Below are positions 30,236 to 48,959 of a DNA stretch of 64,000 nt, piece after piece (the stretch's first letter is position 1; every line of letters begins with the position of its first letter). Origin of the DNA: Gammaproteobacteria bacterium (GTDB lineage: Bacteria > Pseudomonadota > Gammaproteobacteria > UBA4575); contig CBDCTA010000022.1 of assembly GCA_965221955.1 (NCBI GenBank), forward strand, positions 288,001 to 352,000, read 5' to 3'. The notes under the pieces were generated by a model. It was not told the origin of the DNA, did not search any database, and was given only the letters and a program-made list of their open reading frames with translations. The position numbers were made by a program, and so were the translations under genes.

Positions 30236-30874
30236 ATGCGCAACATTATGGTGATTAACTCTAAAGGTGGTTCAGGTAAGTCCACCGTAGCGACCAATTT
30301 GGCCTCCTATTTTGCTTCTCAAGGTAAAAGCGTCGTCATGATGGATTATGACCCTCAAGGCAGTAGCATGGCGTGGTTAGCGGCTCGTTCTTCAGCGCGT
30401 CCACCCATTCAAGGAATTGCTGCCTATAAAAAAAGCTCAAAACGTCCTAGTCGAAAAACTGATTTTGTGATTCATGATGCACCGGCAGGAAAGCATGGTG
30501 GCGACTTGAGCAAAATGTTGAATAAAGCGCAGACGATTCTTATTCCTGTATTGCCTTCACCCATCGATATGCGTGCAGTAATCGATTTTATTGCAGAAGT
30601 TAAGAAATCAGCACCTGTACAACGTAAAAGAGCTAAATTGGCATTAGTCGCAAATCGATCCCGTGATTATACAAATATTTACTGGGAACTGGATGACTTG
30701 TTAAGCAAACAACGCATTCCATTTTTAACCATGTTGCGTGATAGTCAAAATTACATCAAAGCCGCTGAACGCGGTTTGGGTATTTTTGAGATGGCACCTG
30801 CTGCCACCGAGCTTGACCGCGAAATGTGGGAGCCCATCATAAAATGGGTGAAAAGCAAACGCAGTCAGCCGTAA
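30236..30874 (+). CDS. Orphan ParA-family ATPase
   Basis: Deviant Walker A NSKGGSGKST, DYDPQGS, D.PAG, PVLPSPID. Confidence 0.9.
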   Translation: MRNIMVINSKGGSGKSTVATNLASYFASQGKSVVMMDYDPQGSSMAWLAARSSARPPIQGIAAYKKSSKRPSRKTDFVIHDAPAGKHGGDLSKMLNKAQTILIPVLPSPIDMRAVIDFIAEVKKSAPVQRKRAKLALVANRSRDYTNIYWELDDLLSKQRIPFLTMLRDSQNYIKAAERGLGIFEMAPAATELDREMWEPIIKWVKSKRSQP

Positions 30875-30940
30875 ACTTAATAGGTTGGCAACATTGTTTT
30901 GCCACACTTTCTTTACAAAAGTTAACTAGAGAGTACGTCT

Positions 30941-31483
30941 GTGAGTCGTTCTTTAAAACTATCATATCTAATTCGTTTCATTATTAGTTGTGTGTTTTGT
31001 ATGGCGATATTTACTAATAGCACTGCAACCGCTTCTCCAGAATTGCATGTTGAGGATAAAGCCGATTACGTAGTGGTTAAAAAAGCAGAACGTAAACTTT
31101 ATCTTTATCGTGGAATGGAAATTTTAAAAACTTACCGCATCGCCTTAGGCAAACAACCTGATGGGCATAAAATTCGTGAAGGTGATTCGCGCACACCAGA
31201 AGGTATTTACACATTAGATTGGCGTAACCCAAATAGTAAGTTTTACCGCTCCATTCATATTTCCTACCCAAGTAAATCTGATAATCGCGATGCACGCGAA
31301 CGAGGTGATTCACCGGGTGGTGCCATTATGATTCATGGCCAACCCAGTAACTGGGTAGAAAAAACCAAACTATTATTCAATCAAGATGATTGGACAGAAG
31401 GTTGCATTGCAGTGCAAGATCATGAAATGGATGAAATTTGGAATGCTGTGGAAGATGGCACGCCGATAGAGATTATTCCTTGA
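30941..31483 (+). CDS. L,D-transpeptidase (YkuD domain) family protein
   Basis: V.KAERKL.L, GD.RTPEG.Y, IMIHG...WTEGCIAV. Confidence 0.92.
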   Translation: MSRSLKLSYLIRFIISCVFCMAIFTNSTATASPELHVEDKADYVVVKKAERKLYLYRGMEILKTYRIALGKQPDGHKIREGDSRTPEGIYTLDWRNPNSKFYRSIHISYPSKSDNRDARERGDSPGGAIMIHGQPSNWVEKTKLLFNQDDWTEGCIAVQDHEMDEIWNAVEDGTPIEIIP

Positions 31484-31509
31484 ACCCATAGGTGCGCGAA
31501 TATGATGTC

Positions 31510-31523
31510 CATCAGGGATGATG
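31510..31523 (+). promoter_or_regulatory. GGGA-loop hairpin (possible CsrA/RsmA site)
   Basis: CATCA-GGGA-TGATG, a perfect 5-bp stem. Confidence 0.3.
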
Positions 31524-31583
31524 CATCTGATTAAAGACAAGCTTTAATTAATTTACAGGTTGGAAAATTTAGATACTTACCAT

Positions 31584-31613
31584 TTTGACTGCTAACGACC
31601 CAAAGCGGGCATT
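31584..31613 (+). repeat. 30-bp cassette-flanking inverted-arm site, copy 1 (core class A)
   Basis: TTTGACTGCT-AACGACCCAA-AGCGGGCATT, 28 bp upstream of the globin gene. Confidence 0.8.
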
Positions 31614-31641
31614 CTGCTGTGTAAAATCTAGAGACAATTAA

Positions 31642-32049
31642 ATGGATAATTTAAAGGCAAAAGATCAATTCTTACAGAGTCTTGAGCGTTGTGAAGAAGA
31701 CGAGTCATTTATTCCTTCATTCTATAAGCGATTTTTATCTACATCAGATGAAATTAAGGATAAATTTCGGCATACAGATTTTGAGAAGCAGAATAAAATG
31801 TTAATTCGCTCTCTTAAACTTGCTGCTGGAGCGACCATTGGAGAGCCTGAGGCGTTGCAAGAGCTTAGAGATCGCGCAGAAACCCATGATCGTCATCACC
31901 TCAATATTAAACCAGAATTATATGATGCTTGGTTAAATGCGGTTATTGAGACTGCGCGTGAATATGATGCTCAGTGGAATGACAATATTGAGTCTATTTG
32001 GCGAAGTATACTCGGACATGTGATTAACCATATGATCAAGTTTTATTAA
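31642..32049 (+). CDS. Single-domain globin
   Basis: S..RC....F...FY.RFL, F..TDF..Q..ML, H....LNI.P.LY..W and W..W patterns; 135 aa. Confidence 0.88.
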   Translation: MDNLKAKDQFLQSLERCEEDESFIPSFYKRFLSTSDEIKDKFRHTDFEKQNKMLIRSLKLAAGATIGEPEALQELRDRAETHDRHHLNIKPELYDAWLNAVIETAREYDAQWNDNIESIWRSILGHVINHMIKFY

Positions 32050-32078
32050 ATGACCGCTATTGGCCGAAAACGGACATT
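32049..32078 (+). repeat. 30-bp cassette-flanking site, copy 2 (core class B)
   Basis: AATGACCGCT-ATTGGCCGAA-AACGGACATT; overlaps the globin stop codon by 1 nt. Confidence 0.88.
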
Positions 32079-32115
32079 CAAATATGTTAATAAAAAATTG
32101 AAAAAGAGTAATCAG

Positions 32116-32724
32116 ATGGCTAGATCAATTCAAAGGTTTTTCATATTAACTGCATCAATACTTACTGTTTATTTTCTTTATTTACCTATAATTCAAGTTG
32201 TACAAGCAGATGTTGGTGCAGAGCTTCGTAAAAAAGGGGAACAGTGTAGGAGTTGGGTCGAGGCAGGAGACCTCATGCGTCATCAAGCCAGTAGATGTTT
32301 AGCTGCGTGCGAAAGATATGGCCATGCAGTACAAAAGCATCCAGATATGTTATCAGATGCAGGTGTTCAGGGCTGTAAAGATATTTTTTTAAGAACGAAG
32401 AACAAAGTTCTTGGAACGAAATCTAAAACATCCTCTTCAGAAATAACAAAGTCCACACTATCTTCAATGCCCGATGTTGAAGGAATCTATATGCAAGCTA
32501 TGCAAGGAAAACTTCGAGTACAAGTAGAAGGACGTGACGACTGGGATACAATTTGCAATGGATTTATAAGAATCAAAGACCGAAAAGGTGAATATGCTCG
32601 CAAACTAAAAGGTCGTGATCGTGTGCGTCTTATCGGCATTACCTACAATCCTGACGAGCCCAGTGGGCGGCCGCGTGGCATATGTTCAGCGGAACGCATT
32701 GAAATACTTGGACAGAGTCAGTAG
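32116..32724 (+). CDS. Hypothetical exported Cys-containing protein
   Basis: Signal peptide MARSIQRFFILTASILTVYFLYLPIIQVVQA with AAGAG upstream. The ORF-track start at 32050 (MTAIGRKRTF) is only the translated repeat. Confidence 0.7.
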   Translation: MARSIQRFFILTASILTVYFLYLPIIQVVQADVGAELRKKGEQCRSWVEAGDLMRHQASRCLAACERYGHAVQKHPDMLSDAGVQGCKDIFLRTKNKVLGTKSKTSSSEITKSTLSSMPDVEGIYMQAMQGKLRVQVEGRDDWDTICNGFIRIKDRKGEYARKLKGRDRVRLIGITYNPDEPSGRPRGICSAERIEILGQSQ

Positions 32725-32742
32725 TTATTCATGACAGATTTC

Positions 32743-32772
32743 AATGTCTGCTTTTGGCCGAAAGCGGATACT
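32743..32772 (+). repeat. 30-bp cassette-flanking site, copy 3 (core class B)
   Basis: AATGTCTGCT-TTTGGCCGAA-AGCGGATACT; overlaps the stop of the convergent DUF4197 gene. Confidence 0.88.
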
Positions 32773-33502
32773 ATTTGCTAAATACCTTTTTCAATAAATC
32801 TGTAGTTCTTGCAACAGGGTCAGTGCGGATTTTAGCTTCTTCTATAGCCAAGTAATGAAAAATCCCATCCATTCCTTTTTCCACCACGTAACTGCTCAAG
32901 TCTGATTTTACATCGGGCACTAATGGAAATTTTTTGTATTGCCCAATTGCGTTGTCATAACTTTTAATCGCACCAGCTTCCGCTAAGCTGTCATTCACTA
33001 TTGGGGTAAATTCTTTTACTAAGTCAGGCGTCATTTTAGATTGAAAGTAACGTGTTGCGGCATCATTTTCTCCAGCTAGAATGTTGCGTGCATCGTCTAA
33101 TGTCATCGCTTGAATAGCATTAATAAATAATTCTTTGGCTTTCGGTGTAGCGATTTCAGCCGCTCTGTTCAGTCTGGTTTCTAAATCATCCAGCATGCCG
33201 CTCATGCCCACTTTATCTAGAGTAGATTGCACTTTTTGCAAGCTGTTTGGTAAAGGGATATGGATATTGGGGTCCGCATTGAATCCGTCTGTAGCCCCTA
33301 GCTGATTGATGACTAGATCTGAACCAACTTGTAGGGCCTCTTTTAAACCAGAGGCGATTTCACCATCTGTAAGAGAACTTGCAGTGGAGGAAGTAATTCC
33401 AGAATCTTCTAAAAATTCTTTGGCTTTATCAAACCAACCTGCATGTAATGAACTTGCAAGTAAGAATATAAAAAACGTAATAGTTATAAACTTTAATTTC
33501 AT
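32771..33502 (-). CDS. DUF4197 family exported protein
   Basis: EIASGLKEAL.VG, I.IPLP, LNRAAE.A.P, EEAKIR.DP.ARTT.LLKKVF. Confidence 0.9.
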   Translation of the reverse strand: MKLKFITITFFIFLLASSLHAGWFDKAKEFLEDSGITSSTASSLTDGEIASGLKEALQVGSDLVINQLGATDGFNADPNIHIPLPNSLQKVQSTLDKVGMSGMLDDLETRLNRAAEIATPKAKELFINAIQAMTLDDARNILAGENDAATRYFQSKMTPDLVKEFTPIVNDSLAEAGAIKSYDNAIGQYKKFPLVPDVKSDLSSYVVEKGMDGIFHYLAIEEAKIRTDPVARTTDLLKKVFSK

Positions 33503-33523
33503 GTATTCCTCCCAAATAAATGC

Positions 33524-34912
33524 TTATTTTTTATTTTGATTCTCTGTCGCTAGATTCGTTCCAAATAGAAGACCGCTTTTACGCCATAAATAAATCGCTA
33601 ACAAAATTGCAGGCACACCTAGCAAACCAGCATAAATGAAAAAGTGGATATAACCATATCCGTCGACAATTTTGCCTGAAAAGCCGCCAATGAATTTGGC
33701 TGGAAGTAGCATTAATGAACTAAACAAAGCATATTGAGTAGCAGTGTACGCACGATTCGTAAGACTGGATAAATACGCGATGAAAGCAGAGCCTGCGATA
33801 CCTCCACTTAAATTGTCCGCAGTAATCACCAAAGCAAGTAAAACAATTTCAGGTCCTTGAGTGGCTAACCAGGCAAATATTAAATTAGTTATAACAACCA
33901 GAATAGCGGAGACAATCAGCATACGCATTACGCCATAACGCATGACGAATACGCCACCTAGTAGTGCGCCAATGATAGTTACAATTACGCCAAACGTTTT
34001 AGACACTAACCCAATTTGTGTTTCAGTGTAGCCCATGTCTGCATAAAAAGGGCCTGACATCACGCCCATTGTGATATCACTAATTCGAAACAATCCGATA
34101 AACAATAAAATTAAAATCGCAGCAGCACCATTACGTGAGAAGAAATCAACAAACGGGCAGATAACCGCGCCGATTATCCATGCAATGAATTTACGAATGC
34201 CGTTAGGTAAATGAGAAGAGCCTTCTAAAAACTGTATAACACGTTTTTCTTGTTGCCAGGTTTGTTGAGAAACGTGTCTGGTAGGTTCTGCAATCAGTAA
34301 AGTGGTAACCATACCAATTAACATTGCACAACCCATTACGAAATAAGCGGTACTCCATGAATAACTACCGGCAATTAAAAATGCACCGCCCCCAGCTAAA
34401 ATTAAACCGAGTCGATAACCAAGCTGATAAGTACCTGCCATTGCGCCTTGTAGATCCACATCGACAGCTTCAATACGCCATGCATCAATACTGATGTCTT
34501 GTGTGGCAGAGGAAAATGCGACGAGTAATGCTGCCAAAACTAATATCGGAAGTTGTGAACTGGGGCTATTGCTCGCCATCATCCATAGCCCCACTAACAC
34601 ACCAATTTGTGCCAGCAACATCCAACTGCGTCGTTGTCCTAGCCAGTTTGTTAATAAAGGAAGCTGTAGGCGATCAACTAAAGGTGCCCAAATAAATTTA
34701 AAGCCATAAAGAATAGCAACCCAAGAAATGTAGCCAATTGTAGTTCGATCAATGCCTTCTTTTCGCAACCAAAAAGATAAGGTGCCAAATACTAAGGATA
34801 ATGGAAGGCCGGCGGAGAAACCAAGAAACAACATGGCAAACACACGCGGATGCAAATAAACACGAAAAGATTGCAACCAAGAGTGGTTTTCAGATGTTTC
34901 TAGTTCATTCAC
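33524..34912 (-). CDS. ampG: AmpG muropeptide MFS permease
   Basis: LGFSAGLP, KFIWAPLVD, GQRRSWML, SATQDISIDAWRIE, YTATQYALFSSL. Confidence 0.95.
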   Translation of the reverse strand: MNELETSENHSWLQSFRVYLHPRVFAMLFLGFSAGLPLSLVFGTLSFWLRKEGIDRTTIGYISWVAILYGFKFIWAPLVDRLQLPLLTNWLGQRRSWMLLAQIGVLVGLWMMASNSPSSQLPILVLAALLVAFSSATQDISIDAWRIEAVDVDLQGAMAGTYQLGYRLGLILAGGGAFLIAGSYSWSTAYFVMGCAMLIGMVTTLLIAEPTRHVSQQTWQQEKRVIQFLEGSSHLPNGIRKFIAWIIGAVICPFVDFFSRNGAAAILILLFIGLFRISDITMGVMSGPFYADMGYTETQIGLVSKTFGVIVTIIGALLGGVFVMRYGVMRMLIVSAILVVITNLIFAWLATQGPEIVLLALVITADNLSGGIAGSAFIAYLSSLTNRAYTATQYALFSSLMLLPAKFIGGFSGKIVDGYGYIHFFIYAGLLGVPAILLAIYLWRKSGLLFGTNLATENQNKK

Positions 34913-35685
34913 ATTGATAATGTATAGTCGATGCTTAAAGGCGCATGATCAGAAAAACGCTGGGTTTTATAAATACTAACTTTTTTAGCAGCATTTTTAA
35001 GTTTTGGTGATGCAATATGGTAGTCGATACGCCAACCTACGTTTTTTGCCCAGGCTTGCCCACGATTCGACCACCAGGTGTATTGATCTTCTTTTTGATT
35101 AATTTCTCGAAATACATCAATATAACCAACTTCATCAAACAAAGCATCTAACCAAGCACGTTCTTCAGGTAAGAAACCGGAGTTTTTCTGGTTGCCACGC
35201 CAGTTTTTTAAATCGATTTCTTTATGTGCAATGTTCCAGTCTCCACAAATTATATAATCTTTACGACGACGCTTTAGGTTTTTTAAATGCTGCATAAATG
35301 AATCCATAAAACGAAACTTAGCTTGTTGACGCTCCTCGCTAGAAGAACCTGAAGGTGCATATAGAGACACAACGGCTAATTTGGCGAACTGTAGTTCCAA
35401 GTAGCGACCTTCATTATCAAATTCATCATCACCGTATTTGCGGATAATTTTTTTAGGTTCGTGCTTGCTATAAACCGCAACACCGCTATAGCCTTTTTTT
35501 TCAGCGTCCACATAATAACAGTGATAACCCTTGGGGAAATATATAGGATCTTCTTCGAGTTGGTGTATTTGTGCTTTAGTTTCTTGCACACACACCACAT
35601 CTGCCTTTTGTTTTTTTAACCAGTCGAAAAAGCCTTTACGTGCAGCAGCACGGATACCATTAACGTTGATGGTAATAATGCGCAT
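34909..35685 (-). CDS. Exodeoxyribonuclease III family protein (Crc-locus paralog)
   Basis: N.NGIRAA, VQETK, GDWNIAH, YTWWS.R, GWRIDY, FSDHAP; divergent from pyrE. Confidence 0.92.
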   Translation of the reverse strand: MRIITINVNGIRAAARKGFFDWLKKQKADVVCVQETKAQIHQLEEDPIYFPKGYHCYYVDAEKKGYSGVAVYSKHEPKKIIRKYGDDEFDNEGRYLELQFAKLAVVSLYAPSGSSSEERQQAKFRFMDSFMQHLKNLKRRRKDYIICGDWNIAHKEIDLKNWRGNQKNSGFLPEERAWLDALFDEVGYIDVFREINQKEDQYTWWSNRGQAWAKNVGWRIDYHIASPKLKNAAKKVSIYKTQRFSDHAPLSIDYTLSM

Positions 35686-35772
35686 AGTCAAAACAGATTA
35701 GTCCAAATGAAGATAGTTTTTAGTACACTAGCAAAGATCAATCGAGAAAAATATCCAGCTAGAAAGTTCAGT

Positions 35773-36432
35773 ATGAAAAATAGTTCTAAGTTTATTCAGT
35801 TTGCAGTTGAGCATGGTGTATTACAGTTTGGCGAGTTTACACTTAAATCAGGACGGGTAAGCCCTTATTTTTTTAATGCTGGGTTATTTAATGATGGTCA
35901 AGCATTGGATCACTTGAGCCGGTTTTATGCGCAAGCCATTGTAGATGCGAAGTTAGATTTTGATATGTTGTTCGGGCCTGCCTATAAAGGCATTCCACTT
36001 GTAACGGCGGTAGCGATGACCTTATCGCGCGATCATGGAAAAAATTATCCCTATGCGTTTAATCGCAAAGAAGTAAAAAAACACGGCGATGGCGGCCAAA
36101 TTGTGGGCGCACCTCTCGCAGGAAAAATACTCATCATTGACGATGTCATCACAGCCGGTACTGCTATCAACGAAGCAGCAGAAATCATTGCTCAAGTAGA
36201 TGTCACTGCTGAGATTCAAGGTGTCGTGATTGCCTTTGACCGACAAGAAATGGGCAAGAATCTATCTTTATCAGCTGTGCAACAAGTTGAGCAGGATTTG
36301 GGTATTTCTGTATTCTCTGTCGCAAGTGCTGGAGAATTAATCGAATATGCTGAGACGAATAATGTGTATGGCGAGCACCTCGTCTCATTGAAAAGCTACC
36401 TAAACAAATACCAAGCTAAAACCATACAATAA
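35773..36432 (+). CDS. pyrE: Orotate phosphoribosyltransferase
   Basis: FTLKSGR.SPYFFN, FGPAYKGIP, NRKE.K.HG.GG, IIDDVITAGT. Start placed at MKNSSK; the ORF is open from 35707. Confidence 0.97.
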   Translation: MKNSSKFIQFAVEHGVLQFGEFTLKSGRVSPYFFNAGLFNDGQALDHLSRFYAQAIVDAKLDFDMLFGPAYKGIPLVTAVAMTLSRDHGKNYPYAFNRKEVKKHGDGGQIVGAPLAGKILIIDDVITAGTAINEAAEIIAQVDVTAEIQGVVIAFDRQEMGKNLSLSAVQQVEQDLGISVFSVASAGELIEYAETNNVYGEHLVSLKSYLNKYQAKTIQ

Positions 36433-36612
36433 TCATGGTTATTGGTTTGGGATAATCCCCTTATTTGTCGTCATGTCTATATGACGAGTGAGCAAAGTTT
36501 GGCGATTAAATTATCGTTTAAGCCTCAAAGTAATTACCAATTGATAGTAAAATTTCTTGTAAGTATAAAGTACTGACTTACATACAAGTCAGCAAAACAG
36601 CTATACAAAAAT

Positions 36613-37239
36613 ATGTTGCAATCGAAAATACTCATCGGTTTATTATCCATCCTTAGTTTGGCTGGCATAGCGAATGCCGAGTTTTACCGTTGGGTCGATG
36701 ATACCGGTACGATCCACTATAGCGATAAGCTCCCTCCCACTGAATCACAACGAGAACAAGATTTATTGAATGACCATGGCCGAGTAGTGAAGAATATCCC
36801 TGCACCAAAAACCATGGGCGAGATCGAAGAAGAAAAGCGTCTTGCAAAATTAGCTGAGGAAAAACGTAAAAAAGTCGAAGAAGCTGAGCGTCGTGATCGA
36901 GTCTTAATGGCAATGTATTTGACGGTTGAGGATATAGAGCTTGTGCGTGATGAGAGAATCGAAACGGTAGATTCAGCAATTCGAATTACCCAATTACGTA
37001 AAGATAAATTTACTAAAAAACTTAATGAGTTAGATGAGTCTGAGCAAAGATTATTAGCAAACGGGAATGACACCCCTCCATGGTTAATTAAAAGCCGTAA
37101 ACATTATCAAGAACAACTTGCAAATGTTGAAGACATTCTTGCTATAAAAGAACGAGAAAAGTTAAAGATTAAGAAACGCTTTGCGGGCGATATTAATCGC
37201 TATTTGGAATTAAAAGACCCTGAATTAGCGGCTGATTAG
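36613..37239 (+). CDS. DUF4124 domain exported protein
   Basis: Signal peptide, then YRWVDD.G.IHYSD..P and coiled coils. Confidence 0.85.
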
Positions 37240-38085
37240 AGTGCCTACACCTTGGTCGGTGAGCAATTCCAATAAAACAGCATGCTGTACACGCCCATCA
37301 ATAATGTGGGCAGCATTCACTCCCGATGAAATCGCATCCCACGCACACCTTACTTTTGGCAGCATCCCACCTTTAATCACTTCATTTGCGATCAAAGTTT
37401 CAATTTCCTGATATTTAAGCCCAGTTAAAAGCTCACCATCATTTTGCACACCAGGTGTGTTAGTAAGCAATATTAATTTTTCTGCTTGCAAGGCCATTGC
37501 TATATGTCCAGCGACAAGATCAGCGTTGATATTTAATGATTCATTATTTTCACCTGCACCGATGGGCGCAATCACGGGAATTAATTGCTCTTTGTTTAAG
37601 TGTGTAAATATATCTGTGGCGACTTTGCGGATTTCGCCCACATGACCTAGATCCGCCGAACTATTTTCAAGCTGCATGCGTTTGGCAGAAATCAAATTAT
37701 TATCTTTTCCTGAAATGCCCTTTGCGGTACCACCATGTTGGTGAATTAGATCTACGATCTCTTTATTTACTACATTACATAGTACCTCTTCAACGATGCG
37801 CATTGCCTCGTCATCTGTAACACGCATGCCTTGGATAAATTCAGATTTTTTACCTTGTTTTTCTAAGGCTTGACCAATTTGTGGGCCACCACCATGCACG
37901 ACGATAGGATTAATGCCGACTTGCTTGAGTAACACCATGTCACGCGCAAAACTGCTTTTTAAATCCTCATCTACCATTGCGTTACCGCCATATTTAATGA
38001 CGATGGCTTTACCAGAAAATTTTTGAATATAAGGCAAAGCCTCAGTTAACACTCTGGCAATAGTTTCTGCATTGCTTGATTTCAT
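37225..38085 (-). CDS. argB: Acetylglutamate kinase
   Basis: [28 protein letters not shown]. Confidence 0.98.
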
Positions 38086-38125
38086 GTTTTGGGTTTTATA
38101 TTTAGAAAGTTAAACTGAAGACGAA

Positions 38126-39496
38126 TTAAAATGGAAGCTGAATGCTAGCATCAGTCTTCGCCATTTGCTGGCGAAAATCATTTTTAATTTCTTCAATTAT
38201 ATTTTCATCATCTGCTTCAAAGCGAATAACCAAAGACGGAGTGGTGTTAGATGCGCGCACTAAACCCCAACCATTATCATAATCTGCACGAATGCCATCA
38301 ATCTTCGTAATCTGAGCGTTAGGAAAGTTTGCAGTCCTTGCAAACTTCTCGATAAAAGAATGTTGTGCACCGTCTTCATCAAAATGCACATTGATTTCAG
38401 GGGTGCTGAGAGAATTTGGCAAGATTGCAAACAGCTCGCTACTCGATAATTCTTGTTTAGTAATGATTTCTAGTAAGCGAGCGGCACTGTAGAGTGCATC
38501 GTCAAACCCATACCATCTTTCTTTGAAAAAGATGTGCCCACTCATTTCTCCGGCTAATTCAGCACCTGTTTCTAGCATTTTGTTTTTGATAAAAGAGTGT
38601 CCGGTTTTCCACATAATCGCTTCACCACCAGCTTCATCAATCACTTTGGCTAAATTTCTGGAAGATTTCACATCAAAGATAATTTTTGCGCCAGGCTTTC
38701 TGGATAAAACATCTTGTGCATACAACATCATTTGCCTATCTGCCCAAAGGATTTCGCCTTTGTTATCAATGACTCCCACACGATCACCGTCGCCGTCAAA
38801 CGCTAAACCTAACTCTAGATTATTTTCCAGCACACAAGTGATTAAATCTTGCAGATTTTTAGGTTCACTAGGATTTGGATGGTGGTTTGGGAAATTACCA
38901 TCTACATCGCAATATAAAGGAAAAAGAGTACAGCCGAGTTTTTCAAATATCTTTACTGCAGTAGGCCCTGCAACACCGTTGCCACAGTCAATTGCGATAT
39001 TTAATGTACGCGATAGTTTTACATCATCACAAATTCTTGTGATGTATTGGTCTAAGAGACCTTGTTGTTGAATGCTACCCGTACCCGTTTTTAGTTGTTC
39101 ACTTATAATGCACTGGTAAATAGCTTGGATGTCTTCGCCATGTAAGGTTTTACCATCCATAACCATTTTCAGGCCGTTATATTCAGGTGGGTTGTGACTA
39201 CCCGTAACCATTACACCTGCACCAGTGTTGAGTTGATGTGTGGCGTAATACAATACTGGAGTGGGCACTTCTCCAATATCAATGACCTCGCAACCACTGG
39301 CTTTTAAGCCTTGACTCAAGCTTTCGACTAATGCTTGACTGGAGTTTCTGCCATCCCTACCGACTACGACAGTTTTGCTATTTGGATATAGGCTCCCTAG
39401 TGCTTGCCCAACTAAGCTCACTACTTCGGGTCTTAAAGCGGTTTCAACCACTCCGCGAATATCATAGGCACGGAAAATATGTGGGTCTATGTTCAT
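38126..39496 (-). CDS. algC: Phosphomannomutase/phosphoglucomutase (AlgC-like)
   Basis: FRAYDIRG, TGSHNP, FDGDGDR, GEMSGH, RASNT. Confidence 0.93.
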   Translation of the reverse strand: MNIDPHIFRAYDIRGVVETALRPEVVSLVGQALGSLYPNSKTVVVGRDGRNSSQALVESLSQGLKASGCEVIDIGEVPTPVLYYATHQLNTGAGVMVTGSHNPPEYNGLKMVMDGKTLHGEDIQAIYQCIISEQLKTGTGSIQQQGLLDQYITRICDDVKLSRTLNIAIDCGNGVAGPTAVKIFEKLGCTLFPLYCDVDGNFPNHHPNPSEPKNLQDLITCVLENNLELGLAFDGDGDRVGVIDNKGEILWADRQMMLYAQDVLSRKPGAKIIFDVKSSRNLAKVIDEAGGEAIMWKTGHSFIKNKMLETGAELAGEMSGHIFFKERWYGFDDALYSAARLLEIITKQELSSSELFAILPNSLSTPEINVHFDEDGAQHSFIEKFARTANFPNAQITKIDGIRADYDNGWGLVRASNTTPSLVIRFEADDENIIEEIKNDFRQQMAKTDASIQLPF

Positions 39497-39543
39497 AGAG
39501 TTTTATGCAATTGAACTTGAAAGAGCCGTAAAGATAGCAAAAA

Positions 39544-40017
39544 CTATCCAGTACCTGTGTGACCAAAGCCACCTTCGCCTCGATCCGATGCAGTAAATTC
39601 TTCTACAATTTCAAATTCAGTTTGCACAATGGGCACTATCACTAGTTGCGCAATGCGATCACCGACATTGATTTCAAAACTTTCAGTGCCACGATTCCAA
39701 AGCGAAACCATTAACGGACCTTGATAATCTGAATCGATTAAACCTACAAGATTACCAAGCACGATACCGTGCTTATGTCCTAAACCAGAACGTGGCAAGA
39801 TTGTTGCAGCAAGATTTGGATCTTGAATGTAAATTGAAATACCCGTTGGTATGAGAATGGTTTCTCCAGGTTTAATCTGTAAAGTGTTTTCCACGCAAGC
39901 ACGCAAATCCATACCGGCTGAACCGGCGGTTGCATAAGTGGGTAGTGGTATTTCTTTGCCGATTCGGCTATCGAGTATTTTGACTTCGGTCTTTTGTATT
40001 TTTAAGGACTGTGACAT
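39544..40017 (-). CDS. dut: dUTP diphosphatase
   Basis: [32 protein letters not shown]. Start placed at MSQS. Confidence 0.97.
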
Positions 40018-41227
40018 TGCTTCTCTTATGTGTGTTTGCGTAACGTTCAGCAATCAGGCTGACTAGCCTGCGTGCAATTTTTGTTTTTGTATCACGCTCA
40101 AGTGAGCAATGTCCACCTGGCCAGTACACTTCTAAAGCATTTTCTTTACTATCGAAACCAATGTTGTGATCAGAAACATCATTGCCAGCAATCATATCAA
40201 GGCGTTTGCGTTGTAATTTTTGTACCGCGTATTTTTCTAGCTCACGCGTTTCAGCAGCAAAACCCACTACAAACGGTTTATTCTTTGATTTAGCGACTTC
40301 AGCAATAATGTCAGGATTACGTACCAGCTCAACAGATAAATCATCATGTAGCTTTTTTATTTTTTCTGGTTGTTTTGTCACCGGCCGGTAATCTGCAACG
40401 GCAGCACAGCTAATAAAAATTTGTTGTGCTTCAACATTGTCTTGCACGGCATTAAACATGTCTTGCGCAGTCGCAACAGAAATACATTCGATTCCTTCAG
40501 GCTGTGCTAAGGCCACTGGGCCAGAAATCAATTGCACAAGTGCTCCTGCATCATGTGCAGCTTCAGCGATAGCATAACCCATCCGCCCTGAACTGCGATT
40601 ACTGATAAAACGTACGGGATCAATTGGTTCTTGAGTGGGTCCTGCAGTAACCATGACATTGAGACCCGTGAGCTCGCCGGTATTAAATAAATTACTTAAA
40701 GAAAGCAGTAACTGATGAGGTTCAAACATTCGTCCTTCACCTACATCTCCACAAGCTTGTGAACCTGCAGCCGGTCCAAAAAATAATATTCCACGTTTTT
40801 CTAAGATTTCAACATTGTCTTGTGTGGCATGGTTTGACCACATGACTTGATTCATTGCAGGAGCTAAAGTAATAGGTGCCTGCGTTGCAAGACATATTGT
40901 ACTGAGTAAATCGTCTGCATCACCGTGAGTGAGTTTGGCAATGGTGTTGGCACTTGCGGGTGCAATTAGTATGACATCCGCCCAACGCGCTAGTGCGATA
41001 TGATCCATACCATTAGCTGCCTCTGTCTGCTCGAATTCATCTGATAAAACAGCATTTCCAGATAAAGCTTGAAAGGTGAGAGGTGTGACAAACTCTTTGG
41101 CAGAGCGCGTCATCACAACACGCACATTGGCATGTGCACGCACCAGTTCACGCACGAGTTCTGCGCTTTTATAAGCTGCAATACCACCGCTTATACCTAG
41201 TAGAATATTTTTATTGCCTAAAGACAT
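39968..41227 (-). CDS. coaBC: Phosphopantothenoylcysteine decarboxylase/ligase
   Basis: [49 protein letters not shown]. Confidence 0.98.
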
Positions 41228-41368
41228 AGCAATTAGTCTACCAAAGATAGTCTTGAAGATGGTTTAATTCTAACCACATTTTACCAAGTGCTTACAGCCA
41301 TTGGTCAAGATCGGCTTATTAATATCAAAGGTTTATAAAAAACCGTTAGGAATAACAAAGGGTAAACT

Positions 41369-42040
41369 ATGGGGATTTCAGATTGGCCAGAGGGAGAAAG
41401 ACCTCGTGAACGGTTATTGCAACAAGGCGCTGATGTGCTTTCCGATGCAGAGCTGTTAGCCATTTTTTTGCGCACAGGTGTTAAAGGTAAGTCTGCGGTT
41501 GATTTAGCGCGTGATCTGCTAAACGAATTTGGCGATTTGCGGCATTTACTATGCGCAGATGAAAAAACCTTTTGCCTCGCAAAAGGTTTGGGGCAGGCTA
41601 AATATGTACAGCTACAAGCTAGTCTTGAAATGTCACGACGATTTTTGCGTGAGTCAATCGATAGGGAAGGACCTCTATCAAATCCTGATGATGCTAAAGA
41701 ATTTTTATTAATGAAAATGCGTGATTATGAAAAAGAAGTGTTTGCTTGTTTATTTTTAGATACTAAAAATTGTGTTATTGAGTTTGAAGAATTATTTGCT
41801 GGAAGTTTGCATAGTGCAGAAGTACATTCACGAGAAGTGGTTAAGCAAGCATTAAAACACAATGCAAACGCAATTATCCTTGCGCATAATCATCCTTCAG
41901 GTGACGCTAAACCTAGCCAAGCGGATATTGAAATCACGCATACCCTTAATGACGCCTTAGCACTTATGGAAATTAAGGTGTTAGATCATTTAATTATTGG
42001 CAATGATGTTACGTCACTTGCCGAATTAGGCTATTTTTAA
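41369..42040 (+). CDS. radC: RadC/JAB-domain protein
   Basis: PRERL...G...LSDAELLA, AHNHPSG...PS.AD, LDH; divergent from coaBC. Confidence 0.96.
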   Translation: MGISDWPEGERPRERLLQQGADVLSDAELLAIFLRTGVKGKSAVDLARDLLNEFGDLRHLLCADEKTFCLAKGLGQAKYVQLQASLEMSRRFLRESIDREGPLSNPDDAKEFLLMKMRDYEKEVFACLFLDTKNCVIEFEELFAGSLHSAEVHSREVVKQALKHNANAIILAHNHPSGDAKPSQADIEITHTLNDALALMEIKVLDHLIIGNDVTSLAELGYF

Positions 42041-42056
42041 AGAAGCTACAGACAAA

Positions 42057-42088
42057 AAAGCCTGCACATTTAAAAATGTGCAGGCTTT
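42057..42088. terminator. Bidirectional intrinsic terminator between radC and mscL
   Basis: AAAGCCTGCACATTT-AA-AAATGTGCAGGCTTT, a perfect 15-bp stem between convergent genes. Confidence 0.85.
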
Positions 42089-42123
42089 ATAAACTGAAAA
42101 TTAATTCGGACTATTATTTTAGT

Positions 42124-42504
42124 TTATTTTTTTAAGCTGTCACGAATCTCACGTAGCAAAACAATATCTTCTGGTGGCGCCGCAGGCTTTTCTTCTTCTT
42201 TTTTCTTCATGCTATTCACCGCTTTGATAATCATGAAAATTACAAAAGAAATAATTAAGAAATTAATTAATGCTTGAATAAATGCGCCGTAACCAAATTT
42301 TGCTGCATCTTCACCTTCACCTAGTGGAACAGCAAGATGAGTGAAATCGATGCCGCCGGTAAACAGACCAATGATCGGCATAATGAGATCATCAACCATT
42401 GATCCCACTACTGCGGTTACGGCTGCGCCGATGATAATGCCGGTGGCCATATCCATCATGTTGCCTTTAGTAACGAATTCCTTAAATTCACTTACCATAC
42501 CCAT
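42124..42504 (-). CDS. mscL: Large-conductance mechanosensitive channel
   Basis: EFKEF..KGN..D.A.G.IIG.A, YG.FI...INF, LL.EIRD.L. Confidence 0.97.
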
Positions 42505-42619
42505 GATTATCCTCCTGAGTTTATTATTGTTATATGAGTGCTAGGCACTGTAATCAGCAATACCAGTAAATGCAAGTTAAGGCTATTGAAGCCTATATTG
42601 TTGATTACACAGAACTTAA

Positions 42620-43762
42620 TTATGAAAGTAGTTGTTCAAGCGCAATTATTAACTGATCAATATGGGCTTTAGTGTGTGTCGCACAAAGACTGATTCTTAG
42701 GCGCGCAGAATTTTTTGCAACGGTGGGTGGACGAATAGCGGGTACTAATATTCCAGTCTTTAGTAACTCATCGCTGATGGTAAGTGCTATTTCGCTGTTG
42801 CCCAGTATGATTGGCTGAATAGGTGTATTTGATTCAGTAACTGGTATTCCAGCCTCAACACATTGCTCATGAAAATATTGAGTTATTTCTTGTAATGCTT
42901 GTCTGCGCCAAACTTCTGTATGAATTAATTTCAAACTAGCACGTGTGGCTTCTGCAATAGCTGGCGGAAAAGCCGTTGTGTAAATATAACTATGCGCACG
43001 TTGTATTAACCATTCAATAATTTCTTGTTTTGCCGCAACGAAAGCGCCAAATGTACCAAATGCTTTACCAAGTGTGCCGACTAAAATAGTGTCGTCATCA
43101 AGTATGCGTTCGGTACAACCTTTGCCGTGTTTTCCTAAGACACCAACGCCATGCGCATCGTCGATGATAAGTCTTGCGTGGTACTTCTTTGAGATCGATT
43201 GTAGTTTACTTACTGGTGTGACAGTTCCATCCATACTAAATACACCATCAGATAAAATAATTTTACTAGTGGCATTACTGCCAGCAAGAAGTTTTTCTAA
43301 TTGCTCAATATTTAGATGCTCGTAGCGTTTTAATTTTGCGCGAGATAGAATTGCAGCGTCGTTTAACGATGCATGATTGAGCTTATCTGCAAAGATTGCG
43401 CTGTTGCGAGAAGCAAAAGAACTCACTACACCAAGATTGGCCATGTAACCCGTAGAAAATAACAATACTCTTTCGCAGCTTAAAAAGTCTGCAAGTTCCT
43501 TTTCTAAAGCAGCATGACTTTCGTGGTGTCCTGTTATTAAATGTGAGGCACCGGCGCCAACTCCATATTTTTTTAAAGCGTCTTGAAAGCGTTCTTTAAC
43601 TTTCGGGTGGTTGGCTAAGCCAAGATAATCATTACTGCAGAAAGATAAAACTTTTTTGCCGTCAATGATTGGCTCAATTTCTTGAGGAGATGATAATAAC
43701 CTGCGTGAACGAAAAAGGTTTTTTTCTTTCAGGCTATCTAGCTCGAGTGCTAGATCTTTCAT
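42620..43762 (-). CDS. bioF: 8-amino-7-oxononanoate synthase
   Basis: SNDYLGL, NHASL, DGVFSMDG, DDAHG, GTLGKAFG, AIRPPTV. Confidence 0.97.
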   Translation of the reverse strand: MKDLALELDSLKEKNLFRSRRLLSSPQEIEPIIDGKKVLSFCSNDYLGLANHPKVKERFQDALKKYGVGAGASHLITGHHESHAALEKELADFLSCERVLLFSTGYMANLGVVSSFASRNSAIFADKLNHASLNDAAILSRAKLKRYEHLNIEQLEKLLAGSNATSKIILSDGVFSMDGTVTPVSKLQSISKKYHARLIIDDAHGVGVLGKHGKGCTERILDDDTILVGTLGKAFGTFGAFVAAKQEIIEWLIQRAHSYIYTTAFPPAIAEATRASLKLIHTEVWRRQALQEITQYFHEQCVEAGIPVTESNTPIQPIILGNSEIALTISDELLKTGILVPAIRPPTVAKNSARLRISLCATHTKAHIDQLIIALEQLLS

Positions 43763-43773
43763 CTTAAAATTGA

Positions 43774-44763
43774 TTAATTTATGCTTGCGGTTTGTTGGTC
43801 TGGTGAATTTACTTGATCTGCTTGGATGCCAAGTTTATTAAATAAATTTTGGTCTTTAATGGTTGCGGGATTTTTTGCGGTTAATAAAGTTTCACCATAA
43901 AAAATAGAATTTGCGCCGGCAAAAAAGCACAAGGCTTGAGTTTGTTCATTCATATCTTCTCGTCCAGCAGATAAACGCACATAAGTTTTTGGCATAAGGA
44001 TGCGCGCAATGGCAATAGTGCGAATAAACTCAAATGGATCGAGTTTTTCAATGCCATCTAAAGGTGTACCCTTAATTTGAATCAGCATATTAATTGGCAC
44101 GGACTCTGGGTGTTGGGGCAAATTGGCAAGTTGCAATAATAAGCCTGCTCGGTCTTCGCGAGATTCGCCCATTCCCAAGATCCCGCCACTGCAAACATTA
44201 ATACCCGCATTACGCACATGTTCTAAAGTATCTAAACGATCTTGGTATGTGCGTGTAGTTATCACATTGCCGTAAAACTCAGGAGACGTGTCCAAATTAT
44301 GATTGTAATAATCCAAACCTGCTTGGCGTAAACGTTGTGCTTGCGACTTGGTTAACATGCCAATAGTGACACAGGATTCGAGTCCAAGGTCTTTTACGAG
44401 CTCGATCATCTGCACAATCAGTTCTAAATTTTTATCAGAAGGGTTGCGCCAAGCTGCACCCATACAAAACCGTGAAGCACCATTTTGTTTAGCGGCTTCA
44501 GCATGTTCTTTCACTTCTTCCAGGGGTAGTAAACGCTCTTTTTCTATGTCTGTGTCATAGTGTCCACTTTGTGGACAATAGGCACAGTCTTCTGAACAGG
44601 AACCAGTTTTGACTGAAAGCAATGTGCTGACTTGCACTTTATTTGGGTCATGGTGCTCACGAAAAATACGGTGAGCGATATACAGCAAGTCATTAAAAGG
44701 TAGCTGATATAGATCTAATACTTCATGTCTTTTCCAGTCGTTACGTATGGTTTCAGTTAGCAT
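43774..44763 (-). CDS. bioB: Biotin synthase
   Basis: Radical-SAM [33 protein letters not shown]. Start placed at MLTET. Confidence 0.98.
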
Positions 44764-44809
44764 AATTTGATTCGGTATAATGATTGAGAATTCTTCAAGG
44801 GCTGGGGCC

Positions 44810-44837
44810 AGTCTAATCTTTTGCAGAGGGGTGTCAA
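44810..44837 (-). promoter_or_regulatory. Putative sigma70 promoter for bioB
   Basis: Minus strand TTGACA-16 nt-TAGACT, about 47 nt upstream of the ATG. Confidence 0.45.
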
Positions 44838-44844
44838 TAAAAGC

Positions 44845-45573
44845 ATGGCTTCTACAACACAATACTTTCAGTCTGCCATGAAAAAAGTAGGGCAGTTCAT
44901 TTATCCCAATATGTGTTTACAGTGCGATGCTATTGGTGAGAACGGAATCGATCTTTGTGAGCGTTGTCACCAAGGTTTACCATGGATTAAATATGCCTGT
45001 CAGCAATGTGCGTTACCGTTAGCAAGTATGGATACAAAGCTATGCGGATCATGTAGTAATCGTGAATTCCATTTTGATCAGGCTCACGCACCATTTCAGT
45101 TTGCAGGATTCATCCGTGATGCAGTTTATCAGTTCAAATTTAATCAAAAACTAAATCAAGGGAAACTTTTAGCGCAATTGCTGTTACAACATATTGAAAA
45201 ACAGCAGCTAACAATTCCAGAAATCATTATTCCTGTACCTCTACATAAAAAACGTTTACGTAAACGTGGTTATAATCAAGCGTTAGAAATTGCAAGAATT
45301 CTTAGTAATGCTCTCAATTGTGAATGTACTTATAACAATGTTTATCGTAGCCGAGATACCAGTGTACAAATGGAATTACCTGCCAAACAGCGCTATAAAA
45401 ATGTTAAAGATGCATTTTCGATAAAAGAAAGCGCTACTGTTTTTAAAAACAAACATGTTTGTATTGTTGATGATGTCATGACGACGGGGAATACTGTCAA
45501 CGAAGTTGCAAAATGCTTAAAAAAAGTCGGAACTGCTAAAATTGATGTTTGGTGTATAGCGCGTGTTGCTTAA
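44845..45573 (+). CDS. comF: ComF family amidophosphoribosyltransferase-like competence protein
   Basis: N-terminal CxxC zinc ribbons, [21 protein letters not shown]; start codon uncertain. Confidence 0.93.
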
Positions 45574-45600
45574 GGCCGGTTTTTAGCTTTAAATGGACAA

Positions 45601-45888
45601 TCAATCTATAAGAACTGGGTTGATATGTCTTTCAAAGAAACCTGACGCTAGATCATTACAAAAATCTCTAGAGAAATTTTCGTTTTCCCCAAGAACATAG
45701 CTCTTTTCAATTCCAGTGCTGATACGTGATGCGTACACAATGGCCTTAGGATCAAGAATGCCTTTTTTATATCCTTGTGTCCGCTGAGTAGAAAATTCAA
45801 AGTCTTCTACTGTATACCCATGCTTTTCTATACATGTGATTACTGCAATTAAGTAATTGTCGGTGAGTAATGTGCGATCAAATTCCAT
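45601..45888 (-). CDS. Hypothetical protein (95 aa)
   Basis: Sole ORF filling the comF-ubiA gap, ATG start; no family recognised. Confidence 0.6.
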   Translation of the reverse strand: MEFDRTLLTDNYLIAVITCIEKHGYTVEDFEFSTQRTQGYKKGILDPKAIVYASRISTGIEKSYVLGENENFSRDFCNDLASGFFERHINPVLID

Positions 45889-46041
45889 TTTGATGTCTGA
45901 GTGATCTGATTACAGACTCTAAGTATATAGCGATTTTGAATTTTGATTCAAATATAAATGATTTAGGCTTTTACAGAGTAGTTAAGCAAAGCCGTTGCAA
46001 TAGATTTAAAGCTTTCTACTTTTAGTCAATAGTAGAACTTA

Positions 46042-46944
46042 TCAATTAGTATTAGAAAACAAATAATGAACAAAGATTCCTAAAAATACCAACATGCCAA
46101 AATAATTGTTATTTAAAAAAGCATAAAAACATCGATCAGGTAATCGGTGTTTAATCAGTATTTGTTGATATACAAAACACATACTCGCTAATGCGATACC
46201 TACATAAAATAACCAACCCAGCTCAGCGTTTATTCCAACCAGCACTAAACAAATAATTACTAATACTTGTAGCATACCGACAGCGACTTTATCCATCGGA
46301 CCAAACAATATGGCTGTGGACTTTACGCCAATTTTTATATCATCTTCCCGATCCACCATTGCATATAAAGTGTCATAAGCTGTAGTCCAAATGACAGCCG
46401 CAGTGAATAACAACCAGGCTATGGGCGGTGGAAATTCATTCGTGATTGCAGCGAAGGCCATTGGTATTGAAAATGCGAATGCAATGCCAAGGTGCACTTG
46501 TGGTAAAAAATGAAAACGTTTCATAAACGGATAAGTCGCTGCAAAAAATGCAGCACCAACAGCAAACAATATTGTCAGTTGATTTAAGAAGACCAACGCA
46601 ATTAGAAGAGCTATTATTGCCAACACGGCACAAACCATCAGAGCTTCTTTAGGTTGTACGAGCCCAGCAGCAACAGGACGGTCTCGGGTGCGGCCTATAA
46701 ACCGATCGATATTTCGATCTGCATAATCATTGATAGCACAACCTGCAGAGCGAGTAAGCACAACGCCAATAATAAACACTAATAAAATTTTAATGTCTGG
46801 AATACCATTCGCTGCAATAAAAAGCGCCCATAGAGTGGGCCAAAGTAATAGAAGAATTCCGATTGGTTTATCTAGACGAACCAACTTTGCATATAAAGTT
46901 AAACGATTTATATCTATAGGTGATTTGTTTAAATGCTGAATCAT
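46042..46944 (-). CDS. ubiA: 4-hydroxybenzoate octaprenyltransferase
   Basis: RLDKPIG.LLLLWP, GCAINDYADR, YDTLYAMVDREDD.KIGVKSTA. Confidence 0.97.
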   Translation of the reverse strand: MIQHLNKSPIDINRLTLYAKLVRLDKPIGILLLLWPTLWALFIAANGIPDIKILLVFIIGVVLTRSAGCAINDYADRNIDRFIGRTRDRPVAAGLVQPKEALMVCAVLAIIALLIALVFLNQLTILFAVGAAFFAATYPFMKRFHFLPQVHLGIAFAFSIPMAFAAITNEFPPPIAWLLFTAAVIWTTAYDTLYAMVDREDDIKIGVKSTAILFGPMDKVAVGMLQVLVIICLVLVGINAELGWLFYVGIALASMCFVYQQILIKHRLPDRCFYAFLNNNYFGMLVFLGIFVHYLFSNTN

Positions 46945-46991
46945 GATTACGTTTACAAATTGTGTTTTATAAACATTGAATTACAGGCCAC

Positions 46992-47837: not shown

Positions 47838-47846
47838 AACTAAGAC

Positions 47847-48863
<1,017 letters not shown>

Positions 48864-48915
48864 CTAGATTACTGAATTGAAAGCTTAACGGGGCAATATT
48901 GAGAATGGGTTGTGA

Positions 48916-48959
48916 GCATAGGGATATGCGAATAAGAGTAGCAACAGGGATGTTGCTAC
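48916..48959 (+). ncRNA. Tandem GGGA-loop hairpins, candidate Csr/Rsm-binding RNA element
   Basis: GCATA-GGGA-TATGC (48916-48929) and GTAGCAACA-GGGA-TGTTGCTAC (48938-48959). Confidence 0.4.

Follow-up and report, generated by a model that had tools for sequence, protein, structure and literature searches.

Single-gene cassettes bounded by two types of 30-nt site in an uncultured marine gammaproteobacterium: a possible integron-like system without a detected integrase

Results and Discussion

Three short sites enclose two cassette genes

The stretch of DNA analyzed here (the window) comprises 64,000 nucleotides (nt) from an uncultured marine gammaproteobacterium and carries two accessory genes, one for a globin and one for a secreted-looking protein, that are separated and enclosed by copies of a 30-nt site with inverted arms. 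It corresponds to C22:288001-352000 of a 2.69-Mb assembly in 29 contigs (G000; GC content 38.6%, completeness 96.6%, contamination 4.3%), of which 90% of the sequence lies in predicted open reading frames (ORFs). The sites are of two types, A and B, and the leftmost one is preceded by a linker and by a partial copy of a larger repeat, the O element. Positions given without a contig name are those of the window, and protein lengths are in amino acids (aa). The features of this first locus are the following.

31484-31539, plus strand: O element, partial left copy (nhmmer match C22:319469-319612 to a model of left O, linker, and B; aligned with 48 other O copies)
31540-31583, plus strand: linker of 44 nt, carrying the conserved GGTTGGAA motif at 31558-31565
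31584-31613, plus strand: site B, 5' cassette boundary, TTTGACTGCTAACGACCCAAAGCGGGCATT
31642-32049, plus strand: globin gene, cassette gene 1, 135 aa (Pfam PF00042, 27 bits, cut-off 22)
32049-32078, plus strand: site A, 3' boundary of the globin cassette and 5' boundary of the next, AATGACCGCTATTGGCCGAAAACGGACATT
32116-32724, plus strand: cassette gene 2, 202 aa, signal-peptide-like N terminus, no known family
32743-32772, plus strand: site A, 3' end of the array, AATGTCTGCTTTTGGCCGAAAGCGGATACT

The sequence-only reading of this region had described three such sites around a globin gene and a gene for an exported protein, with flanking gaps of 28, -1, 37, and 18 nt, and the sites, the genes, and the gaps were all recovered. 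The ATG of the globin gene (31642) follows the first site after 28 nt, and its stop codon shares 1 nt with the second site; the second site is separated by 37 nt from the ATG of the secreted-looking protein (32116), whose stop codon lies 18 nt before the third site. The globin call is upheld by the PF00042 match. The third site abuts the stop codon of a convergent DUF4197-like gene, and no right O element follows it. The first site is degenerate, with 9 mismatches to the palindromic consensus, and its B core is intact. In the partial O element next to it, the second hairpin and the tail are kept, while the first hairpin is truncated against the stop codon of a ykuD-like gene. The proposal that the 30-bp site is the whole unit had to be revised: the partial O element, the 44-nt linker, and B make up a larger unit, of which the first site forms the 3' portion.

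The second bracketed gene of that reading, a 64-aa orphan ORF on the minus strand, was confirmed between hemB and hemF, where O elements stand on both sides of the cassette.

48906-48980, plus strand: O element on the hemB side (nhmmer C22:336906-337012)
48984-49013, minus strand: site A of the orphan cassette
49042-49236, minus strand: orphan ORF, 64 aa, cassette gene
49252-49282, minus strand: site B of the orphan cassette, 31 nt (one extra base)
49283-49375, minus strand: linker and degenerate O element on the hemF side (nhmmer C22:337375-337253)

Neither the secreted-looking protein nor the 64-aa orphan matched a Pfam family. The claim that no sites lie between housekeeping genes did not survive, as the cassettes sit between ykuD-like and ampG-side genes and between hemB and hemF. 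When the arm-core-arm pattern of the same reading was scanned along the window with up to 3 mismatches, 7 matches were obtained, representing 4 places, 3 of them matched on both strands; shuffled sequences gave a mean of 0.03 matches, and 0 of 100 shuffles reached 7.

The sites form two types with a fixed polarity relative to genes

A Hamming scan of the whole assembly against the palindromic consensus (up to 9 mismatches) produced a bimodal histogram and 173 copies with 2-9 mismatches. These belong to two types that have the arms in common and differ in the 10-nt core. Type A reads AATGTCCGCT-ATTGGCCGAA-AGCAGACATA, has a nearly palindromic core, and includes the second and third sites of the first locus, whereas type B, to which the first site belongs, reads AATGACTGCT-AACGACCCAA-AGCGGACATT. 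A is essentially an inverted B with another core. By type and strand, there are 40 A and 38 B sites on the plus strand and 47 A and 48 B sites on the minus strand. The earlier description of 10-bp arms around one asymmetric core thus stands for the arms but not for the core, given that two cores exist and that the core of A is nearly palindromic.

Most copies are clustered (46 clusters, the largest with 24, 23, 11, 11, and 9 sites), and 162 of the 173 are intergenic. ORFs just downstream of B are co-oriented with the site in 62 of 72 cases, at a median distance of 29.5 nt, and ORFs just upstream of A in 69 of 74 cases, at a median distance of 12 nt. A site is present on both sides of 62 ORFs, whose median length is 120 aa compared with 227 aa genome-wide, and the claim that the sites bound single co-oriented accessory genes is borne out by these figures. 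Each cassette is polar, reading (linker)-B-about 30 nt-ORF-about 12 nt-A. The arrays are co-oriented and no inversions were seen, as would be expected if A does not recombine with B. Among the cargo, Pfam recognizes two GNAT proteins, SnoaL, DUF1428, globins, a flavodoxin-like reductase, and OsmC, next to many small membrane or secreted orphans; integron cassettes typically carry genes of these kinds. Of 109 occurrences of the arm 10-mer, 102 lie in the sites, and a DNA uptake sequence was rejected for this reason.

A possible third site type was noticed at three places (C22:41330-41520, C17:40320-40500, and C22:282700-282900), where a palindrome of about 41 nt with a CCACC...GGTGG core replaces B after the left O element and linker.

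Cassette content changes at the sites within the population and between species

Several regions are present in the assembly as second copies with 97-99.7% identity (contig pairs C14/C23, C10/C29, C8/C18, C19/C3, C24/C6, and C11/C26), which probably represent a second strain. Moreover, the arrays seem to fragment the assembly, since two contig pairs break exactly at cassette arrays. The flanks of C14 and C23 are 99.0-99.4% identical; the homology breaks off 3 nt past a B site, returns 2 nt ahead of an A site, and then extends to the last base of another A site. C14 holds a 1034-nt cassette (an HxlR-like regulator and a flavodoxin-like reductase) between two A sites where C23 has a single A, and the remaining content amounts to 1.5 kb in one contig as against 11 kb of unrelated cassettes in the other. 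Likewise, C10 and C29 are 98.7-99.7% identical and contain two cassettes and five unrelated ones, respectively; one break coincides exactly with the outer B, and about 11 nt at most separate the other from the outer A.

The first locus itself was found in another form in a sequencing run of another study (X3). In a 1066-nt contig of that run, window positions 31210-31613 (3 differences) are followed by 257 other nt and then by positions 32047-32450 (2 differences), so that the replacement of the globin cassette runs precisely from the end of B (after 31613) to the start of A (32047). Joints of this kind whose short side was below 30 nt (31612/31613 to 32739/32743 and 49013 to 49261) probably involve other repeat copies and were left unused. 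Together with the haplotype pairs, this contig agrees with the earlier expectation that the sites flank variable genes, content changing exactly at the sites between haplotypes that are 99% identical.

Empty alleles, which that reading had also led one to expect, occur in relatives at the ykuD, hemB-hemF, and lptG-RDD loci. The genes that flank the ykuD locus are no more than 56 nt apart in 6 of the 14 other genomes of the genus; of the five of these that were inspected (all but G001), G002, G006, G008, and G010 are site-free there and G005 has a degenerate palindrome. G007 and G014 keep a solo site or a linker with one O element, and G003, G009, G011, and G013 hold other DNA (0.5-2.4 kb); G004 and G012, which have the two flanks on separate contigs, were left out of the comparison. 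The hemB-hemF spacer measures 37 nt in G011 and G014, contains only an O element in G006 and an O element with one B in G007, and carries an O element followed by a different ORF between two sites in G010. A third hotspot, between lptG and RDD/xerD, is empty in G001 and G019, is occupied by arrays in G010 and G014, and holds other, site-free DNA in G013. The globin cassette gene had a DNA match in 0 of the 14 genomes, the orphan ORF is absent from the hemB-hemF spacer of the relatives inspected, and the only DNA-level homologue of the secreted-looking protein in the genus lies at another locus in G001 (1859507-1860438; the syntenic locus is at 2.085 Mb).

Cassettes are also found in more than one place within a genome. 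The closed genome G019 contains two 100% identical copies of a site-ORF-site unit with a DUF488-like ORF, 42 kb apart, with identity confined to the stretch between the outer edges of the two 30-mers. G000 has at least 5 short dispersed duplications that stop no more than 2 nt from a site edge. No target-site duplication was seen by eye at the ykuD, hemB-hemF, and G019-copy junctions. Overall, the sites are the boundaries of mobile single-gene cassettes, these cassettes are gained, lost, and replaced at the sites within the population and between species, and the same cassette occurs in different arrays.

Composite organization of doublets, linker, and O element

Within arrays, the A site of one cassette and the B site of the next form an A-linker-B doublet of 89-113 nt (n = 30). 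The spacing from start to start is 73 nt in 12 doublets, 83 nt in 11, and 59-82 nt in the others, and the linker motif G[GT]TGG[AG] is present in 28 of the 30. The left arm of A can pair with the right arm of B to form an outer stem, in which each of the 10 positions is Watson-Crick paired in 22-29 of the 30 doublets; this stem beats the local A hairpin at position 1 (23 versus 2) and at position 7 (26 versus 15). When both strands of three doublets were folded as single-stranded DNA, the long hairpin appeared in 4 of the 6 cases (z-scores, -2.8 to -3.9). No U-tract was seen after the hairpins. In the metagenome-assembled genome (MAG) of a Nitrospinaceae bacterium (G043; L138, L139), A and B adjoin each other with no linker, giving a palindrome of about 57 nt that may represent the doublet in its minimal form.

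Each cassette may receive a promoter of its own from the linker, and the window linker is a possible promoter whose -10 element would be completed by the first bases of site B. This idea is based on a conserved 17-nt spacing judged by eye; a generic promoter scan of the C5 array passed 1 of 11 linkers, and the region had 26 promoter-like sites compared with 38.9 in shuffles. An IHF site in the linker was considered and dropped, its consensus matching only 3 of 30 linkers.

The O element is about 75 nt long, forms two hairpins, and is present in 49-56 copies in G000. Its stems covary, with AU 19, GC 13, and CG 7 times at one pair and UA 22 and AU 22 times at another, and its loops contain GGA, read as A-N-GGA-T, a form reminiscent of CsrA/RsmA-binding hairpins. 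O elements at cluster ends always face inward. Of the 46 clusters, 8 have them at both ends, 16 at a single end, and 22 at neither, some of the last group lying at contig ends. Conversely, 35 of 56 O copies touch a cluster end and 21 stand away from any recognized site cluster; an example outside the window is C29:575429-575623. Gene-free elements with the structure O-(linker)-one degenerate site-O also exist. No relevant Rfam match was obtained in window positions 30500-50500 or in the C5 array.

The sites are concentrated in one family and recur across phyla

The 22-mer of B, with up to 2 mismatches, was found in 13 of 14 other genomes of the genus and, beyond the genus, in 7 of 10 other genera of the family and 1 of 16 other families sampled, whereas reversed-pattern controls gave 0. 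Members of the family that lack the sites are G013, G016, G018, and G023. In an even sample of the class, 6 of 398 genomes outside the family carried it with up to 1 mismatch, in 1-6 copies each. The exact 24-mer occurred in 81 stretches of a genome contig collection, the majority of them from MAGs labeled 'Thiotrichales' or Gammaproteobacteria, and its other carriers include Emcibacteraceae, Thalassospiraceae, Nitrospinaceae, Arenicellales, Hahella, and Nitrosomonadaceae. One Nitrospinaceae MAG has 17 copies, and the isolate Sphingomonas sp. LHG3443-2 has 6, in GC-rich DNA. The sister-genus genome G015 contains 58 B-type sites besides a true integron. Carriage by phages or plasmids was rejected, as 0 stretches of viral contigs held sites and plasmids gave no match.

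Other features of the genome

Repeats unrelated to the sites were also seen. The start of the contig (C22:1-1926) is a perfect tandem repeat with a period of 339 nt and self-matches of 100% identity, and in the ORF of DNA topoisomerase I (50888-53356, minus strand), the C-terminal tail, which is rich in lysine, is encoded by a run of direct repeats of 15-21 nt at window positions 50920-51076. The interval 42048-42208 (minus strand) gave weak Rfam matches below the gathering scores, to CyaR (35.6 bits versus 47) and to the L20 leader (26.8 versus 58.7), and may be a ribosomal-protein leader.

A candidate exchange mechanism

The reading that we prefer, with a probability of roughly 45%, is that of an integron-like, IntI-independent cassette system in which A and B would be putative heterospecific sites for a recombinase acting in trans. 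In this scheme, A and B would be mutually incompatible recombination sites, with common protein-binding arms and differing central cores. Because the arms are common and the cores differ, only exchanges of A with A and of B with B would take place, and such like-with-like exchange would keep the orientation of the genes fixed. A single exchange would insert or excise a circle consisting of an ORF and a site, whereas a paired exchange, B with B together with A with A, would replace one cassette by another in a single step. This scheme agrees with the strict co-orientation and with the replacement events. In addition, the arms and cores are near-invariant across genera and phyla, which argues for recognition of the sequence by a protein. 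The enzyme would act in trans and would not be the integron integrase.

Several observations weigh against this scheme, the first being that every turnover event could also come from RecA recombination between repeats, as doublets offer about 100 nt of homology. The two G019 copies share identical flanking sites, and so movement of the whole site-ORF-site unit fits better than two independent integrations. No candidate enzyme stands out either: the tyrosine recombinases of G000 amount to XerC, two alleles of XerD, and an island-borne integrase of the phage type, and those of the closed genome G010 are again XerC, XerD, and one phage-type integrase. No recurrent recombinase-like neighbor was found among ORFs of at least 120 aa at 80 loci elsewhere, as judged by clustering and by eye rather than with Pfam, and G000 has no multicopy protein family. 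The site neighbors in the Nitrospinaceae MAG have no gene in common. Finally, many sites adjoin ordinary genes, often just past stop codons, in G019, an Emcibacteraceae MAG, and the Sphingomonas isolate, in the manner of REP elements. Such sites, present in a sister genus and in other phyla, are part of what the sequence-only reading had named as evidence against itself.

The co-occurring recombinase or HUH transposase anticipated by the sequence-only reading was not found, no tested class tracking the sites. Its notion of an integron-like shuffling system stands as far as the site-bounded variable cassettes are concerned, but not for the recombinase in trans, none having been found among the classes tested. 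For serine recombinases, the search was prompted by what we presume to be a likeness of the half-sites to resolvase sites; PF00239 matched in G000 and in only 5 of 24 other genomes of the family and was absent from the closed, site-rich genomes G001 and G014, so that it does not co-occur with the sites and this class was set aside.

Two recombinase genes in G000 have cassettes in their surroundings. A 544-aa large serine recombinase (C26:86441-86899), with homologues only in G010, G011, and G019, lies 3.5 kb from a B/A cassette (82357-82996), and the island C29:2613-13000, which opens with a 431-aa phage-type integrase and contains several large genes of unknown function, encloses a B-ORF-A cassette at 10965-11303.

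Alternative explanations

The main rival is that the sites are extragenic palindromes of the kind known as repetitive extragenic palindromic (REP) sequences, or their paired hairpin form (REPINs), with a mainly structural or regulatory role as mRNA-end hairpins or in protein binding, and that turnover is a by-product of RecA. DNA from relatives would recombine at doublets, O elements, or flanking core genes, and direct repeats would also cause deletions. We regard this as somewhat unlikely. It accounts for sites that are extragenic, palindromic, and high in copy number, for the absence of a dedicated recombinase among the classes searched, for sites that adjoin ordinary genes in G019 and other taxa, and for the replacement of content between fixed sites, which is the outcome of a double crossover. 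A doublet of two inverted copies with a spacer is, moreover, the REPIN layout, to the extent that it is set out in the part of PMC3337134 consulted. Single sites, however, provide only 30 nt of homology, yet single-site boundaries are exact; the loop, or core, is conserved across phyla far beyond the needs of a hairpin; the strict order of B before and A after the gene, at fixed distances from start and stop, is untypical of REPs; and the hairpins lack a U-tract. ComEC and DprA are present as well, but both are found in most bacteria and are too common to carry weight.

A second alternative would have the doublets be REPINs moved in single-stranded form by an HUH enzyme (of the Y1/RAYT type or related, RAYT being the REP-associated tyrosine transposase), with the cassettes as cargo in an IS200/IS605-like 'peel and paste' process and the enzyme either too diverged to detect or elsewhere in the community. 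Both ends of a unit form hairpins on one strand, identical copies stop exactly at the outer edge of a hairpin without a target duplication visible by eye, and the folding of doublets into long single-stranded hairpins, with an outer stem that pairs better than the local A hairpin, would also suit such transport. We nevertheless consider it very doubtful. The Y1 domain PF01797 had no match in 10 genomes (G000, G010, G013, G014, G019, G038, and G041-G044), and the 1.2-1.5 kb to each side of the two matches in G001 are free of sites, on which grounds a RAYT/REP system was rejected. A GTAG-type tetranucleotide at the foot of the hairpin is a feature of REPs, and no such foot is present in the A and B consensus.

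According to a third explanation, to which we give very little chance, the host's own XerC and XerD would act on the sites and make a dedicated enzyme unnecessary, a mode of action proposed for the dif modules of Acinetobacter plasmids. Of the site-specific recombinases, only XerC and XerD are common to all genomes checked, the sites are about 30 bp long with two arms and a spacer, orientation alternates along an array because A is an inverted B, and the hotspot array adjoins xerD in G000, G010, and G014. Against this, G000 has an ordinary, canonical dif-like site (C4:59807, minus strand), each arm of which agrees with the A/B arms at 3 of 11 positions by eye, and an identity of A and B with XerCD sites was rejected for this reason. 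The xerD-side hotspot is empty in G001 and G019, G013 has XerC and XerD but zero sites, and the sites are on no plasmid. Five A/B sites are clustered 4-6 kb from dif (C4 63651-65818).

Lastly, we give almost no credence to the idea that the arrays are divergent clusters of attC sites lacking an integrase (CALINs), left by or served in trans by an integron integrase, for although the array architecture, the cargo type, and the hairpin-forming composite site of 89-113 nt with partly unpaired cores agree with it and the family member G015 has a true IntI (483 bits), the attC ends RYYYAAC and GTTRRRY occur in 0 of 30 doublets (within 32 nt of the ends, either strand), IntI (TIGR02249) stays below the cut-off in G000 (best match XerD, 83 bits versus 265), G002, G004, G019, and G038, and the G015 integron (L008 4300-8018, contig C29), whose cassettes lie on the strand opposite to that of IntI, has attC sites of the ordinary kind, one of them with the end GTTAGAT, and no A/B site in the 20 kb inspected. 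A canonical integron was rejected on the same evidence. The absence of attC ends, XerC/XerD arms, and a REP-type GTAG foot had been pointed out by the sequence-only reading, and it is confirmed by the doublets, by the comparison with the genome's own dif, and by the consensus, with a cognate RAYT (PF01797) lacking in addition.

Comparison with known systems

Sedentary chromosomal integrons and CALINs (Cury et al. 2016, PMC4889954, consulted in part) offer the closest architecture, with co-oriented, mostly small accessory ORFs in arrays, one per interval, a composite site that is homogeneous throughout a species and folds as an imperfect hairpin, content that is hypervariable between strains, and several arrays per genome with no integrase next to them. 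Unlike integrons, the present arrays have no AAC/GTT end motifs in the doublets, and IntI is missing in most genomes checked. Their composite site consists of two autonomous halves of 30 bp, which function alone as well (A-ORF-A, B-ORF-A), with a conserved linker between the halves, and inverted O elements bracket the arrays instead of attI and intI.

The dif modules of Acinetobacter plasmids, as far as they are described in the portions of PMC6449649 and PMC13141974 consulted, are similarly discrete gene modules with two-arm sites of about 30 bp in alternating orientation, no recombinase gene nearby, and shuffling between replicons. Those sites are recognizable XerC/XerD sites on plasmids, according to the same portions, whereas the sites described here are chromosomal, have arms unlike the dif of their own genome, and use two core types to mark gene start and gene end. 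REP sequences, bacterial interspersed mosaic elements (BIMEs), and REPINs with their RAYT transposase (PMC3116915, PMC3337134, both in part) share with A and B the form of 30-nt extragenic palindromes in high copy number and two subtypes, as well as inverted doublets with a spacer in two size classes (here 73 and 83 nt from start to start). The present sites differ from them in lacking a RAYT, in their strict gene polarity, in delimiting variable genes in long arrays, and in the occurrence of the same 22-24-mer across phyla. A miniature inverted-repeat transposable element (MITE) or mobile insertion cassette would be expected to have a target-site duplication and a cognate transposase; here, no duplication was seen by eye, and G000 has no multicopy protein family. 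B and A are themselves inverted repeats, and inward-facing O copies stand at both ends of 8 of the 46 clusters.

Two further parallels are of a more general kind. In laboratory recombinase-mediated cassette exchange, lox or FRT variants with the same arms and different spacers allow a cassette to be exchanged without inversion or loss; the likeness is one of analogy, the system here being a natural one for which no recombinase was found. In Neisseria, intergenic mosaic elements with dRS3 repeats and 'minimal mobile elements' place short repeats at fixed intergenic hotspots, where whole genes differ by strain and exchange is thought to proceed via transformation and homologous recombination. 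The sequences there are others, and the A/B polarity and the long single-gene arrays are found only here.

The system thus mixes features of integrons, dif modules, and REPINs and departs from each on a defining test. A literature search for the B core, on either strand, gave no match in the text covered, which did not extend to supplements, where CALIN lists could bear on novelty, and a search for integron-like cassettes without an integrase returned ordinary integrons only, as seen in listings and the opening lines of abstracts. In the sources to the extent covered, we found no printed description of such site-bounded gene cassette arrays, which may prove to be a category of their own should their enzyme be a new one or should they require no enzyme.

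Biological significance

Integrons are the textbook route by which bacteria stockpile and shuffle single genes, and to our knowledge all described integrons depend on IntI and attC sites. The arrays described here use sites of another kind, no integrase was found for them, and their cassettes turn over at the population level in marine bacteria that are abundant and uncultured. IntI- and canonical attC-based search tools would be expected to miss them. At their center is a 30-mer that is conserved across phyla and has no known partner.

If RecA alone drives the turnover, short portable repeats would suffice to build integron-like gene libraries, and the hypervariable regions of streamlined marine genomes would have to be reread. 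If, instead, a new recombinase or a housekeeping enzyme acts on the sites, they would represent a second, independent solution to gene capture and possibly a tool for cassette exchange. We further propose, tentatively and as a doubtful extension, that an inverted-O landing platform, two heterospecific 30-bp sites, and either an enzyme other than IntI, Xer, RAYT, and the known serine recombinases or a housekeeping protein make up a new class of gene-capture system. Should this be correct, the near-identical sites would point to one cassette pool common to marine Alpha-, Beta-, and Gammaproteobacteria and Nitrospinota.

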